64,000 bases of DNA. It comes from a bacterium. GTDB lineage: Bacteria; UBA8248; JACPRG01; G963555815. The DNA lies in contig CBDHDG010000007.1 in assembly GCA_965261595.1 (NCBI GenBank), positions 960,001 to 1,024,000 of the forward strand, written 5' to 3'. The notes beneath the pieces are model-generated. The model was not told the origin of the DNA and searched no databases. It saw only the letters and a list, made by a program, of their open reading frames with translations. Positions 2,210 to 10,200 of the stretch are shown one piece after another (within the stretch, counting starts at the first letter, position 1; every line of letters begins with the position of its first letter). Both the position numbers and the translations under genes were made by a program.

Positions 2210-2684
2210 TCGTTCCCTCCTTCTGATGTGCAAAAAACAGCGCTGAAATCCCTCCCGGTTCTCATCCTGTCGCTTCGTCCTCTGAACGCTCGTTCGTTGA
2301 TCTTCCAGGGAGGAAGCCCTTTGAAGAACCCTCGACACCAAGAGAATGCATGGGACAATTCTTATATTCTAACATTTTTCAGATTTCAGGGGAACGTTGG
2401 AAAAGGTGAAAGGGATCAATTCTTTCAGAGACGCCCAACAGCAAATCTTGAATCTCGAATTTACATCGTAAAAGCATTCCGGCCCCGCTGACGCGCCCTT
2501 GCGCCCGCGTGCGCCGCTCCCGAGGAATACGGCGATTCCGCGCCCCCTCCCTATTGCGGCGGCTTGTCCCAAGAGATAGGGTTTGAAGACGGGTTTCGCG
2601 CCGGGATCTCAGCAACGACGGGGGGAACGCCCGGAACCGCCCGTTTCATTTAACCGACACCCTCTTTTGAACAGGAGGCTGGCC

Positions 2685-3236
2685 GTGACATCTTCCGAAT
2701 TGCTCAGCGGACTCGATCCCGACGTCCTGGCCAAGGGAAGGACGCTCGTCATCGAGGCGGACATCACGACCTTGGACACCATGGCCAAGGAAGGCGTGGT
2801 GAAGGGGGGAGCGGGGATCTCTTGGACCCTTCGGTGCGACGAGGGAAAACACGTGGGAGGGGAAGGCGCCGCCCCCGCCCCGCTGGATTACTTCACCATC
2901 GGCATCGGGTTCTGAACGCTGACCCAGCTCGCGCGGTACGCGCGAATGATGAAGATCGATGTCCGGGGGGCGCGGATGCACGTCCATGCGGAATTCACGG
3001 CGCAAGGCTCGGTTCTGGCCCAGACGGTGGAGTCGGCCTGCCGGGGCGTGACGTACCGGCTGGAGATCGAGTCCGACGAGCCGCCCGAGCGAATCGCCGG
3101 TCTCATCCGCAACGCCGAGAACGGCTGCTTCGCCCTCTCGGCCATCAAGCGGCCGGTCGAGGTGCGGGGCGAGTTCTCGCTGAACGGCGAAACCATCGAC
3201 CTCGACGCCTACCCGCCGCCGAAGCGTCCCGGTTGA
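2685..3236 (+). CDS. OsmC/Ohr-like peroxidase-fold protein, probable selenoprotein (UGA at 2913-2915 read as Sec)
   Basis: AGGAGG RBS then GTG at 2685. ORFs 2583-2915 and 2946-3236 are in frame and joined by a single TGA: DEGKHVGGEGAAPAPLDYFTIGIGF-U-TLTQL...AENGCF. Hairpin at 2929-2945. Confidence 0.85.
2916..2945 (+). promoter_or_regulatory. Putative bacterial SECIS element
   Basis: TCGCGC-GGTAC-GCGCGA stem-loop. The G-starting apical loop begins 20 nt after the UGA. Confidence 0.65.
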
Positions 3237-3302
3237 GGGGGAGGGGGAGGGGGAGGAACACGTAAGCAATTTTTGGCCGGACAAGCAAGCGGGAGAGAGA
3301 AC

Positions 3303-4073
3303 ATGACCAATCAGGTTCGAATCATCCACTACGGAGAGCAGGGATTTCCAGGCTCCGCCCTGTATCACATGAGCCGGTTCGGTGAAGTCCTGAAGATCCC
3401 GTTCTATTTCTGGGTCGTCCGGGGCGGGGGCCGGACCGTCCTGATCGATACGGGGGTCAGCCCGGAGCAGGCGAAGATCGAGAACGAGAACACCGTGGCC
3501 CGGTTCGGGAAGGAGTGCGCGTGGATCGTCCCTCCCGAAAAAGACCCCGTCAAGCAATTGGCCGATATCGGGATCGCGCCCGACGACGTGGACGCAATCA
3601 TTTTCACCCATCTTCACGGCGACCACTCCGCGAACCTTCCCTCGTTCCCAAAGTCTAAGCTCGTCATGGCGCGAAGGGCGTGGGAGGCGATTACCTCCCC
3701 GGCCCACCCGGACTTAATCAAGCCGGGTTTCTATCCCGACTATGTGATGGAGGAGCTTCACCGCGAGCTGGGCAAGAGGTTCCGGCTGGTGGAGGACGGG
3801 GAGGACGTCTTCCCCGGCATTCGCTGTTACCGGGTCGGCGGACACAGCCCCGATTTAACGGTGGTGACGGCGGAGACTTCCGAGGGGGAGGTGGTGTTCG
3901 CGAGTGACGCGGCCGTTTTTTATGACAGCCTCGAGCTCGGCCGGCCGACCTCCAGCTTCAACATGGCGGATTCCCTATACGCCCTCGACTTCATCAAAGG
4001 CCGCGGCGGGACCGTCCTGCCGGGACACGACTGGGATGTTCTGAAGCGTCATCCAGGCTGTGTTATCGGTTGA
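3303..4073 (+). CDS. Metallo-beta-lactamase fold hydrolase, N-acyl-homoserine lactonase-like
   Basis: LIDTG, THLHGDH, GGHSP, ASDA and PGHD metal-binding motifs. Confidence 0.85.
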   Translation: MTNQVRIIHYGEQGFPGSALYHMSRFGEVLKIPFYFWVVRGGGRTVLIDTGVSPEQAKIENENTVARFGKECAWIVPPEKDPVKQLADIGIAPDDVDAIIFTHLHGDHSANLPSFPKSKLVMARRAWEAITSPAHPDLIKPGFYPDYVMEELHRELGKRFRLVEDGEDVFPGIRCYRVGGHSPDLTVVTAETSEGEVVFASDAAVFYDSLELGRPTSSFNMADSLYALDFIKGRGGTVLPGHDWDVLKRHPGCVIG

Positions 4074-4529: not shown

Positions 4530-5447
4530 TCATGCGGCCTCCGCAACTTGAGCGAGTTTTTCCTGCCTTGCCTGGGCCGGCGTTCGGTAGCCGTAGCCCT
4601 CGAGAATCCAATGATGGTTGTACAGGTTCTTGAACTCAAGCAGCGCCCACCGCAGTTCCTCTACGGTGGCGAAAGAGCGCACCCACAGGAGATTCTCCTT
4701 CAAGATGCGGATAAACCACTCACAGTAGCCATTTCCCTCGGGCGCCCGCACGAAGCTGGGCGAACTGGTCATGCCCAGGTAGGCGATCTCCCGCTGAAAG
4801 TCATCGGACAGATAGGCGGGGCCGTGGTCGTGACGAACTTTAAGCCCCTCGGCGACGTCCGCCTCCAAGCCGGCGAAGCGCTCGGCGACCCCCTGCCGGA
4901 TCGGCTCCAGGGCCTCGAAGCGGTTGCCGCTCTTGGCCGCATGGATCCCCACGCAGTCCACCGAGCAGTGATCCACCGCCACGAACACCGAGGCCACCCC
5001 CTCCTCGGTGGTCACCGTCGTCGTCATGTCCGTGCCCCACATTCGGTCGGGCCGCTCGGTGCGGATGGTCCCGTTGTGGGCCTTGGGACCTCGGGGTTTG
5101 CCCACCCGGTGGGGGGCCTGAAGCCCCGCCTCCCGCATCAGGCGACGCACCCGCTCCTTGCTGGTGCGGATGCCCGCGAAGCGCAGCCTCGCCCACACCT
5201 TGCGGTAGCCCTCGCCATGGAAGGGAGAGTCCTCCAGGACCTGCCGGATGTGGCCGAGGAGTTCCGCATCGGTGCACGGGCCCACAGGGCCGCGCTTATT
5301 GGGCGTGGGGCGTTCATGAACGGGGACCGCCTCTCGCCGCCGTTGCGCGTAGACCGTGGAGCGCGCCAAGCCCCAAAGGGCGCACACCCGCTTCAGGCCG
5401 TAGGCTCTGCCCGTGGAGGTGAAGCGGGCCTGACTCATCGCCTCCAC
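4530..5447 (-). CDS. IS3 transposase OrfB (rve DDE domain)
   Basis: GYRKVW, WGTDMT, HDHG and EGNGYCE motifs. Confidence 0.92.
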   Translation of the reverse strand: MEAMSQARFTSTGRAYGLKRVCALWGLARSTVYAQRRREAVPVHERPTPNKRGPVGPCTDAELLGHIRQVLEDSPFHGEGYRKVWARLRFAGIRTSKERVRRLMREAGLQAPHRVGKPRGPKAHNGTIRTERPDRMWGTDMTTTVTTEEGVASVFVAVDHCSVDCVGIHAAKSGNRFEALEPIRQGVAERFAGLEADVAEGLKVRHDHGPAYLSDDFQREIAYLGMTSSPSFVRAPEGNGYCEWFIRILKENLLWVRSFATVEELRWALLEFKNLYNHHWILEGYGYRTPAQARQEKLAQVAEAA

Positions 5448-5821
5448 CTCCTGCCGGCTAAAGGGCGGCCGGCCTCCAGGCGGTCGATCTTCTCCCGCAG
5501 GACCTCGCCCTCCATCGTGAGTTCGCCCACCTTGGCCTTGAGCCGGGCGTTCTCCTCGTCCCGCTCATCCGCCGGGCGGGCTTTGAGCGCCGCCTCGCCC
5601 CCGCGAAGGAACGCCTCGCGCCAGGCGGAAAGCCGAACCGCTGTCGTGCCCAACTCGCGGCAGAGCGTCTCCAGGCTCTCGCCCCGCAAAAGACGCAGGA
5701 CCGCCTCCCGCTTGCGCTGGCAGGAGAACCGACCCCGCTCACTGCGATGCCCTGGGGCCTTGGCTCCGTTCGCCCTGCGGGCGCCCTCCGCCAAAGCCCC
5801 CTCTTGCTTTTGTTCGTTCAT
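5435..5821 (-). CDS. IS3 transposase OrfA (HTH)
   Basis: RKREAVLRLLRGESLETLCRELG...LKAKVGELTME, overlapping orfB. Confidence 0.88.
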   Translation of the reverse strand: MNEQKQEGALAEGARRANGAKAPGHRSERGRFSCQRKREAVLRLLRGESLETLCRELGTTAVRLSAWREAFLRGGEAALKARPADERDEENARLKAKVGELTMEGEVLREKIDRLEAGRPLAGRRWRR

Positions 5822-5960
5822 CGCGACACCCCTTTCTCCATGAATCATGGATCAATCGAGTGTCCAACAAAACCCTAGAGCGGGGGACCCCGGCCGTACA
5901 AACTCCTACTCATTTCGCACGATGGCTCGAATCCAATAGCTCGCGTGAGGGGAGCACTGA

Positions 5961-6572
5961 TTGTTCCCCGGAGGAGTCGTCGAGCGCATAATTGTATCCA
6001 GTGTTCTCATCATATCAATTTTACTTCAATTTACGGCGGCCTTCCTCGCGTTGCGGCTGATTCGTTTCACCGGGAAGAGAACGGCGTGGGTTTTCATCGC
6101 GGCGGCCGTTTTCCTTATGGGTGTCCGGCGCTCGATCACACTGTGTCGATTGTTTTCCGGAGACCATTCCCATCCCCCAGACTTGTCCGCCGAAGTCGTC
6201 GCCCTTGCGATCTCGGTCTTCATGGTGGCGGGCGTCGGCTGGCTCGCCCCTTTGTTTCTCTCCATCCGACGTTCGTCGGAGGCGCTGCGGAAATCCGCGG
6301 AAGCGCTCAAGACCCGCCTGGTGGAGCAGGAGGGACTTGTGAGCGCGCTGGAACAGGTCACCTCCGACGTGGAGGTGGAAGCGGTGATCGAGTCCGTGCT
6401 GGGCGAAAGCACGCGGGTGATGGGGACGGACCGGTGCGCCGTCATGCTCCCGGACGCGAAAGGCGACGCGGGGCTGAGTCGACAGCAGGCTGAAGATGGA
6501 CCCGTCGATATACAAAGGGAGATTTTTAATTGCATGAATAGGCTTTATTGCCTAAATTCTTATACTTATTGA
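5961..6572 (+). pseudogene. Truncated membrane sensor (TM helices plus the start of a GAF domain)
   Basis: Three hydrophobic helices, a coiled coil and the GAF start (VTSDVEVEAVIESVL...DRCAVMLPD), then an abrupt change to AT-rich sequence. Confidence 0.55.
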
Positions 6573-7228: not shown

Positions 7229-10200
7229 ATGACTTCATCAACGGCGACGCGTGTTCCCAATATCGATGATCCCCTGGACCTGCTTCACCGCATCCTCGAT
7301 GATTGTCTCCGCGTTCTATCGGCGGACCGGTGCGGCCTCTTTCTGAAAGACCCGGAGGAGGGCGATTTTCGACTGATCACGTCCATCGGCCTTTCTGAAG
7401 CGTATCTGTCCGCGACATTGGAGCGGCGGGTGGGTTTCCCAAATTCACAGATGCTTCAAGAGCCCCGGTTTCTTTACTACCCCGATGCACAATGCGATTC
7501 CCGCCTGAAGGATATTTGGTCTCAAATCCGCGAGGAGGGGATTCGGTCGGTCATCAGTGTGCCGCTGCCGTCTGAAGAACAACCGATTGGCGTATTTCTG
7601 CTTTATTTCGATCAACCGCGAGAGATCTCCCCCGAGGACACGCGTACGATTCGCACCTTTGCCGACCTTGCCGCCATCGCCATTGAGAACCTGCGCCTCT
7701 ATGAACGGGAGAAAGAGGCGTCCCGGCGCCTGGGCCGCCTCCAGGAACTGGCCCTCCAGGTCTCATCCCCCCTCGATTTGTCCCAGCTCTTTCAGGCCGT
7801 CACGGACGCGACGGAGGAGCTTCTGGGAGATCCTCAGTCAAAACCCTCTTATTCGAGAATCTATTTGTGCGACGAAAGCGCCGATCAAATTGTGTCCCGG
7901 GCTGAATCGGGCCTCTCCCCTGAAGTGCTGGGTGGCTCGAAGACCCTGGCTTTGGGAGAGGGGCTTGCGGGTTGCGTCGCGCTGACCCAGCAGCCGCTCA
8001 TCGTCCCGGATGTGCAAGAAGACCCGCGGGTGGCCGAGCGGGGATATGCCAAGACCCGGGGACTTCACCATTCCTTCATCGGCGTTCCGCTTCTGGTCAC
8101 GGGCGAAATTTCGGGCGTCCTCACCTGCGTGTCTCGGGAAACCTCCACTTTCACCGAAACTGATCTGCATTTGATCGAATCCCTGGCCGGCCATGCGGTC
8201 GTTGCCATCGAGAAAGCCCGGGCCTTCGAGGAGATCAAAACACGGTCGGACCGGCAGGAGGCGTTGCGCAAAGTCACCGGTGACATCACCCGACACCTGG
8301 ATCTGCCCACCCTCTTCCGCCGAATCTGCGAGGGGGTCTGCGGGCTGCTGGACGTGGAATTCGGCCGGGTGTTCGTTTTGGAGGAATCCGCCGAGGCTTT
8401 CCGGCTCGCCGGCTACTTCAACCGCATTCAAAAGGATTATCAACCCACCCCGGTGGTTCCAAAGGGAATAGGGATCGTTTCCCGGGTCTACACGGAACGG
8501 GCCCCCGTGATCGTTTCCGATATCGGAAAAGGCCCTGACTGGTACAACCAGGAAGGGATCGATCGATTGGGCGTTCGCTCCTTTGTCGGGGTTCCCCTGC
8601 TTTTGCGGAGCCGCGTTGTGGGCGTGCTTCACTGCTTCACAACCCAACCAAGGGAATTCCAATCCGATGAGATCGAGCTCCTCCGCGATTTCGCCGATCA
8701 GGCCGCCGTGGCGCTGGAGAACGCCCGGCTCCTTCAAGAGTCCGAGAAGCGGACAACCAACCTCGAAGTTCTGAGTGAGATCGCAAAGGCGGTGAATGCC
8801 ACATAGGATCTCCAGGAGCTCTTCCGTGTCACCGTAGAGCAGGTCAAACGGGTGATCCCGTGTGAGCGTTGCAGTGTCTATAAGGTTGAGCCCGACAAGC
8901 AGGTCATATCGAGAATTTATGCGGTGGACGACATCGGGGGACGGGTGAATCGAATTCCTCCCAGTTCCCTGAGGGGGAGCGAATTCGAACATGTCCTGGC
9001 AACCCAAAAGGCCAGATATATCCCGGATACACGAAAAAACTCGCACCCCCGAATGCAACACATGGCGGCGGAGGGCCTGCGCTCAATCATCCAAATCCCT
9101 ATCCTGAGCGAGGGGGAGTGTATCGGTTTCCTGAACATCTACTCCAGTAAGGCGGACGGATTTACAACGGAGCAAATCAACCTGCTGGGCTCGGTGGCGG
9201 ACCACCTGGCCTTCGCCCTGAGGAACGCCGAGCTTTACGCCCGGGCGAAGGAGAGCGGCGATCGGCTCGACAATTTCGTCCGAAGCGCGTCGGACGGAAT
9301 CATCACCGTGGACCTGAAAGGACGGATCACCTCCTGGAACCCGGGCGCGGAGGGGATGTACGGCTACTCGGAAAAGGAAATGCTCGGGGAGGATCTCCTA
9401 CGGGTCTTTCCTCAAACCGAGCGGGAAAAGGGAGAACTCCTGATGCCGATGAAATCTGGGAAGGCCGTCTCCGCGTTCGAGACAGTCCGGCGGCGAAAAG
9501 ACGGATCACGGGTGAACATCTCCCTGACGCTTTCCCCCATTAAAAACGCCGAGGGCCGGCTCGTGGGGATTAGTGGAATCCAAAGGGATATCACCGAGCG
9601 CAAACGGGCCGAGGAGGCCCTCAAGCTCACGCAGTTCTCCGTCGAACGGACGGCCGACCCGGTCTTCTGGATCGACGCGGACAGCCGGTTTCTGAACGTA
9701 AACGACACCGCATGCCGCCACCTCGGCTATTCACGGGAAGAGCTGCTCTCGATGACGGTCTCGGACATCAACCCGGCGTTCCCGCCGGAGAGATGGGCCG
9801 AGTATTGGAAAGAGGTCAAGCGAAAGGGATCGCTCACGTTCGAGTCCAGTCAGAGACGGAAGGACGGCAGCGAGGTCCCGGTCGAGGTCGCTACCAACTA
9901 CATGGAATTCAACGGAAAGGAATACGATTTCGCCTTCGTCCGCGACATTACCGAGCGTAAACGGGCCGAAGACGCGTTGCGCGAGAGCGAAGCGCGGAAC
10001 CGGGCCATTCTTCAGGCCGCTCCGGACGGGATCCTCACCTTCGATGAGAGCGGTGTGATCGACTCGTTCAACCCGGCGGCGGAGCGGATCTTCGGCTTGT
10101 CCGCTCCCGAGGTGCTGGACGGGAAAATCGGGGCGCTGATGGACGGCGACGACGCCCCAAGGTTCGAGGCCTACCTGCAATGGTATCTGCAAACCGGCGA

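Follow-up and report, generated by a model that had tools for sequence, protein, structure and literature searches.

A gene at positions 2685 to 3236 of the 64,000-nt stretch of bacterial DNA that we analysed (the window) very probably encodes a member of the OsmC-related selenoprotein family, the "OsmC-like protein, UxxT", in the COG1765/YhfA branch of the OsmC/Ohr fold, and we are slightly more confident still, on sequence grounds, that the in-frame UGA at 2913-2915 is a selenocysteine (Sec) codon. The predicted recoding is well supported by the sequence, the homologues and the content of the genome. The resemblance is more than chance, because a curated family profile matched across the TGA and a hairpin downstream of it covaries among homologues. 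The finding is real and ordinary: it adds one more member to a selenoprotein family described in 2005.

The gene begins with a GTG at 2685, and a lone TGA at 2913-2915 interrupts an otherwise open frame of 183 codons up to 3236; the terminal stop at 3234-3236 is also TGA. With translation table 11, two ORFs in the same frame are obtained, 2583-2915 and 2946-3236. The first-pass annotation had read these as one gene joined by a single TGA, and its coordinates and peptide were correct on translation. The peptide around the UGA is ...PLDYFTIGIGF-U-TLTQLARYARMMK..., in which the part from the UGA onward begins U-TLTQL, and the second Cys that had been placed in AENGCF is present as Cys148 in the context NAENGCF. 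The features of the gene are as follows.

2673 to 2678, + strand: Shine-Dalgarno-like AGGAGG, with a 6-nt spacer to the GTG start, read directly from the sequence
2685 to 3236, + strand: coding sequence of the predicted OsmC-related selenoprotein, 183 residues and stop, translated with TGA as U
2913 to 2915, + strand: in-frame UGA, predicted Sec codon of U77 in the motif U-T-L-T, from the translation and the homologue columns
2929 to 2945, + strand: predicted SECIS hairpin, stem 2929-2935 with 2939-2945, apical loop GUA at 2936-2938
3126 to 3128, + strand: TGC codon of Cys148 in G-C-F, putatively the resolving Cys and the second of the conserved redox residues

The read-through protein matched the NCBIfam profile NF041052, "OsmC-related (seleno)protein", with a score of 167.1 bits relative to a cut-off of 95 (E 2.1e-49), residues 23-168 being aligned with profile positions 2-144 of 144; in a six-frame search of the genome, the window gene scored 158.7 bits. 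This alignment spans the TGA, in agreement with the earlier proposal of a single 183-aa Sec enzyme. The Pfam OsmC domain PF02566 was also found, at 50.2 bits (gathering cut-off 27.5), over residues 59-160 and across the TGA. The two sequence marks of the family were found in the protein: the UxxT motif is U77-T-L-T80, and the second conserved Cys, in G-C-F/Y, is C148, which was invariant in 26 of 26 sequences of the family alignment.

An OsmC-like protein of COG1765, with the redox motif UXXT and a predicted SECIS, is listed in the survey of Zhang, Fomenko and Gladyshev (2005; PMC1088965), so that the first-pass annotation was right to call such proteins already reported, and the entry is repeated in later surveys and reviews (PMC1976440, PMC13188914, PMC9312934). 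The relevant literature consisted of sequence surveys and reviews, and none of the titles listed pointed to biochemical work on an OsmC-like selenoprotein. The gene had also been called hidden; this holds for gene callers that lack a Sec model, but not for curated resources, in which the family already exists as NF041052.

The lone TGA could instead be the mark of a Cys-type OsmC-like gene broken by a TGC-to-TGA nonsense mutation, or of a sequencing or assembly error, with only fragments being encoded. A fresh pseudogene would also show a single in-frame stop, and the two halves are reported separately by gene callers (P0004, 76 aa; P0083 and P0002). The 76-aa protein P0004, from a relative, is 92% identical, begins with MTSSEL... 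at the same start point as the window gene, and ends exactly at the UGA with ...GIGF, as would be expected of a Sec gene that callers split. Most other short library fragments start a few to about 12 residues past the UGA, and a word-indexed protein search returned one match, a 105-aa C-terminal fragment that is uninformative on full-length forms. However, several observations make a pseudogene or an error a very remote prospect: the TGA is kept at the U77 column throughout the over-cut-off matches and the metagenome loci reaching the site (counts below), the protein sequence is conserved on both halves, the hairpin covaries, and the TGA is retained in contigs from two other studies. These contigs (X5 and X8) span 2773-3400 and are unchanged at 2913-2915; independent assemblies thus show TGA, and not the TGC or TGG that the first-pass annotation had named as a refutation. 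The TGA is not an assembly error. A metatranscriptome library contributed a 212-nt contig (X15, 2809-3020) that bridged the UGA and the hairpin with no differences, although DNA carry-over is possible in such a library.

In the same comparison, it was seen that the hexamer GAGGGG occurs three times, followed by a partial unit, at 3235-3258, where it overlaps the stop codon. One of the X8 contigs has one 6-nt GAGGGG unit fewer, and therefore the repeat number varies between populations.

The hairpin has the sequence UCGCGCG-GUA-CGCGCGA, with a 7-bp stem that begins 13 nt past the UGA and a loop 20 nt past it, which confirmed the GC stem-loop with a G-starting loop that had been noted about 20 nt downstream. 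It has the form of a bacterial SECIS, a hairpin shortly past the UGA with G or G-U in a small apical loop. When the 40 nt from the UGA were folded alone, a free energy of -15.1 kcal/mol was obtained (z = -2.1), and 7 of 200 shuffled sequences were as stable. The fold of this single sequence is weak evidence, because an 81-nt stretch showed no surplus stability over shuffles (z = +0.95).

We took 51 nt, starting at the TGA, from each of 38 family genes (32 distinct sequences), and these aligned without gaps; five of the genes belong to this genome and 33 to relatives, one false regex hit being left out. It was found that 87.9% of cells were paired in the helix formed by columns 17-23 with 27-33, and compensatory double changes were present in five of the seven stem pairs (40 cells); the hairpin that had been proposed to follow the UGA directly as a SECIS is therefore conserved with compensation across these genes. 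The covariation score was 0.482, compared to 0.159 in shuffles, and was reached by 0 of 500 shuffles, although the sequences are kin and the shuffle figures are therefore not probabilities. As a control, sliding the partner strand by one to three columns left 19-58% of cells paired. RNAalifold, unprompted, predicted the same six inner pairs, and the outermost pair (17-33) was formed in 10 of the 32 distinct sequences, including the window gene.

Part of this variation lies at sites that are silent in the protein. Column 30, a synonymous third position in an Ala codon, tracks column 20 (CG 18, AU 11, GC 3, unpaired 0); column 24, likewise a third position, in codons for Arg, Met, Leu or Gln, is G throughout; and column 25 is U throughout. 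The loop residues G2936 and U2937 are invariant family-wide, and the loop can be read as NGUNN. The amino-acid pairs A...H, K...S, G...H and R...S change together in a way that preserves the stem, and synonymous sites do so too. These patterns argue that the hairpin is under selection at the RNA level, the covariation and invariant loop not being explained by protein constraint alone. A scan of 2600-3300 with Rfam (E up to 10) returned three chance-level matches and no SECIS family.

The genome from which the window is taken (6.17 Mb in seven contigs) carries the complete Sec machinery that had been named as a check, selA, selB, selC and selD all being found above curated cut-offs. The tRNA-Sec scored 72 bits and was called SeC, anticodon tca, by ARAGORN; selA (550 bits) and selB (390 bits) are adjacent and read through without internal stops; and selD scored 330 bits. 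The selD gene (G000:C5:89297-90265, - strand; locus L018) has one in-frame TGA of its own, and the SelD of this genome is probably also a selenoprotein.

It was also considered that TGA might be a standard sense codon here, for Trp or Gly as in genetic codes 4 or 25, in which case residue 77 would not be Sec. Reassigned codes likewise give in-frame TGA codons, but the window gene itself stops at the TGA of 3234-3236, selA and selB are without internal stops, and no in-frame TGA was seen at Trp or Gly columns among the genes examined. Furthermore, the genome has the full Sec machinery, and the homologue column is occupied by Cys, never by Trp, and by Gly in 1 of 63 sequences. We regard a sense-codon TGA as vanishingly improbable.

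Selenocysteine at residue 77, the preferred reading, is consistent with the other members of the family in this genome. Five genes scored above the NF041052 cut-off, including the window gene, each with one TGA in the same column, in the motifs GIGFUTLT, GIGQULLT, GIGAULLT, GVGAULLS and GIGTULLS. In each of the four further genes (loci L024-L027), the TGA occupies the U-x-x-T/S column and is followed by a hairpin with an unchanged offset.

G000:C5:439008-439427, - strand: further NF041052 gene
G000:C6:1062236-1062598, - strand: further NF041052 gene
G000:C5:635613-636032, + strand: further NF041052 gene
G000:C4:731241-731609, + strand: further NF041052 gene

Two weaker OsmC-like matches in the genome, at C6:216630-217043 and C4:650871-651251, were also seen to contain one TGA each.

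When the search was extended to 40 related genomes, an over-cut-off NF041052 match was present in 38 of the 41, own genome included. All 142 over-cut-off rows from these 38 genomes had exactly one in-frame TGA, at the U77 column, and stop-free rows were found only below the cut-off; the U77 column was also TGA in 38 of 38 aligned family genes. A HMMER search of the whole protein library gave 714 representatives at E <= 0.001. Columns were counted in 63 of the best 150, those with a length of 130-215 aa, 70 that were longer than 215 aa and 17 that were shorter than 130 aa being left out. The U77 column of these 63 held C in 56, S in 4, G in 1, A in 1 and a gap in 1, although some library C may be Sec written as C, and 56 of 63 is then too high a figure for Cys. 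The library protein P0007, for example, reads C, yet of the 38 metagenome loci found with it as the query (two of them cut short before the site), each of the 36 that extend to it has TGA and the hairpin. True Cys forms do exist: Cys is aligned to U77 in the solved homologues 3cje, 2opl, 1vla and 2onf, of which 3cje and others have Cys at the C148 position as well, and E. coli YhfA has Cys47. Therefore, the column that the first-pass annotation proposed to inspect for Cys or TGA held both, and never Trp. Among the same single-domain representatives, the C148 column was C in 61 of 63, and T or S stood at +3 of U77 in 60 of 63.

Within the family, the window gene belongs to a divergent branch. 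Its orthologues were 95-96% identical in a genome of the same genus (G001) and 66-67% identical in a further genome (G003), and these three sequences shared 32-43% identity with the other 23 aligned members; a search of genome contigs returned one locus, in the same-genus genome. Compared to these 23 members, the branch has UTLT in place of ULL(T/S), DEGKHVGG in place of DEPPRIGG, and a C-terminal D-x-Y-P-P-P tail.

Some arrangements of more than one OsmC-like unit were also encountered. In one relative (L031, G032:C69:5634-6653), two NF041052 Sec genes stand in tandem with about 160 nt between them, and both have a TGA and hairpin of their own; a selenoprotein gene has been duplicated locally here. 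Nearly all of the 70 representatives over 215 aa among the best 150 have two matched stretches (P0003 has 322 aa, and many have 370-420 aa); in these proteins, two OsmC-like domains are fused. The PDB also contains a 400-aa "Osmotically inducible protein C" (9wo1).

The 26-sequence alignment was used to build an AlphaFold2 model, whose mean pLDDT was 80.3, high from residue 66 and low over residues 1-60. In this model, U77 is within a long helix (66-88), and C148 is where helix 134-147 breaks off and helix 149-155 follows. The PDB matches listed by Foldseek were all OsmC, Ohr, OsmC-like or unnamed structural-genomics entries, with E down to 9.5e-6; together with the PF02566 match, these place the protein in the OsmC/Ohr superfamily. 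The TM scores were modest (0.32-0.47), as would be expected when a swapped dimer is modelled as a monomer and the N terminus is poorly predicted.

Among the known proteins closest to the window protein, the OsmC-like selenoprotein family (PMC1088965; NF041052) has the same domain, UxxT motif and second Cys, and likewise a SECIS with G in a small apical loop past the UGA. E. coli YhfA, a COG1765 member of the OsmC family with unknown function, has Cys47 in correspondence with U77 and Cys113 with C148, but it contains Cys rather than Sec, has 134 aa, and lacks about 45 N-terminal residues and the PPP tail. The best solved sequence relative was the OsmC-like protein 3cje (Jannaschia sp. CCS1 in the Foldseek description; E 8e-9, and 1e-16 with the profile), which carries GCVMTQ, with its C-x-x-T, in the place of U77 and KKGCF in the place of C148, and which is a Cys form without recoding.

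The Ohr and OsmC proteins, lipoyl- or thiol-dependent organic hydroperoxide reductases, share the fold and have one redox residue on each long helix; relative to them, the peroxidatic residue of the window protein would be Sec. The Ohr structure 3eer had marginal sequence similarity (E 2e-4 with the profile). In a two-sequence database, the family profile matched E. coli YhfA at E 3e-8 and E. coli OsmC less well, at 7e-5 and in the Cys125 region only, where OsmC Cys125 aligns with C148. With hhalign, the family alignment matched E. coli OsmC over only 23 columns around Cys125, with a probability of 4%, which is too weak a match for U77 to be placed on Cys59. It appears from these comparisons that the window protein is nearer to the YhfA/COG1765 branch than to Ohr or OsmC proper. 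The earlier assignment of the UGA to the position of the Ohr/OsmC peroxidatic Cys is thus upheld by way of YhfA-type proteins, the solved OsmC-like homologues and the shared fold, but not by a residue-level alignment with Ohr or OsmC.

A mechanism can be proposed in which the hairpin at 2929-2945 would recruit SelB and Sec-tRNA(Sec) while the ribosome sits on the UGA at 2913-2915, such that selenocysteine would be inserted as residue 77 and no termination would occur there, whereas the final UGA at 3234, which is without such a hairpin, would terminate translation. A hydroperoxide, or another oxidised substrate like it, would then be attacked by the selenolate of Sec77, in helix 66-88, and a selenenic acid would be formed. 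This acid would be resolved to a selenenylsulfide by Cys148, which lies where the second helix pair is kinked, and a thiol, lipoyl or thioredoxin-type donor would reduce the Sec77-Cys148 bond. This chemistry is inferred by homology, on the basis of the fold and the conserved pair of redox residues, and the chance that peroxide reduction would be the physiological reaction is, in our estimate, about even.

A genuine selenoprotein that is not a peroxidase is only a little less probable, namely a selenol/thiol oxidoreductase that would act on a protein disulfide, a persulfide or a small electrophile, or a redox sensor. The presence of five Sec paralogues in one genome suggests diversified substrates, and the window protein is closer to YhfA than to OsmC. 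Furthermore, the residues that are invariant in the family alignment (n = 26), D52, E53, G59, P64, P66, Y69 and others, differ from those that we take to be the Ohr-type set. Selenoproteome surveys, PMC1088965 among them, label COG1765 a "predicted redox protein", and YhfA-type proteins are described in PMC8945050 as retaining both Cys, lacking the neighbouring Arg and Glu of Ohr and OsmC, and being biochemically uncharacterised. On the other hand, the protein shares with the hydroperoxide reductases both its fold and the geometry of its redox pair, and several solved relatives were deposited as hydroperoxide resistance proteins, these being depositor names and not assays.

The surroundings of the OsmC-related gene in the window are as follows.

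1 to 1194, - strand: UbiD-family gene, upstream
1220 to 2341, - strand: NMT1/THI5-like binding protein gene, upstream
3304 to 4073, + strand: metallo-beta-lactamase-fold gene (ATG at 3304), 67 nt downstream of the selenoprotein gene

The metallo-beta-lactamase-fold neighbour is kept in the same-genus genome at 85% identity, and it was not found within roughly 4 kb on each side of the orthologue with 66% identity (G003). The upstream UbiD and NMT1 genes were found at neither of these two orthologous loci. A terminator scan of 2300-3400 predicted none, including between the OsmC-like and metallo-beta-lactamase-fold genes, and a promoter scan of the same interval gave one weak promoter-like site (2332-2359) that is uninformative. 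Further along the window, two long candidate ORFs, 4548-5843 (+, 431 aa) and 5945-6493 (+, 182 aa), are overlapped by ORFs on the opposite strand and had no Pfam match at E <= 0.001. At 7229-8806 (+) there is a 525-aa signalling protein with three GAF domains, unrelated to the selenoprotein gene.

Descriptions of the family, its motif and its SECIS type go back to 2005, and the window gene opens no new question. Its main relevance is to annotation: callers without a Sec model give fragments of 76 aa and roughly 96 aa, and four paralogues in the genome are split likewise, so that the redox-enzyme inventories of such genomes are undercounted. The family alignment is also a clean example of a SECIS inside a coding sequence and could seed a covariance model for the SECIS of this family. 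The pattern of multiple copies that are all of the Sec form in this bacterial class is worth a note. Because there are five Sec genes here and 142 of 142 copies with TGA in 38 genomes, none of them a Cys form, the family may exist in this class only as Sec forms in multi-copy sets, with the window gene as a functionally diverged branch, marked by its UTLT motif, DEGKHVGG loop, D-x-Y-P-P-P tail and, within the genus, the adjoining metallo-beta-lactamase-fold hydrolase; we consider this extended interpretation rather unlikely. If it were true, the window branch would act on a different substrate than the ULLT paralogues, and the family would represent an obligate-Sec paralogue radiation and not the usual interchange of Sec and Cys.
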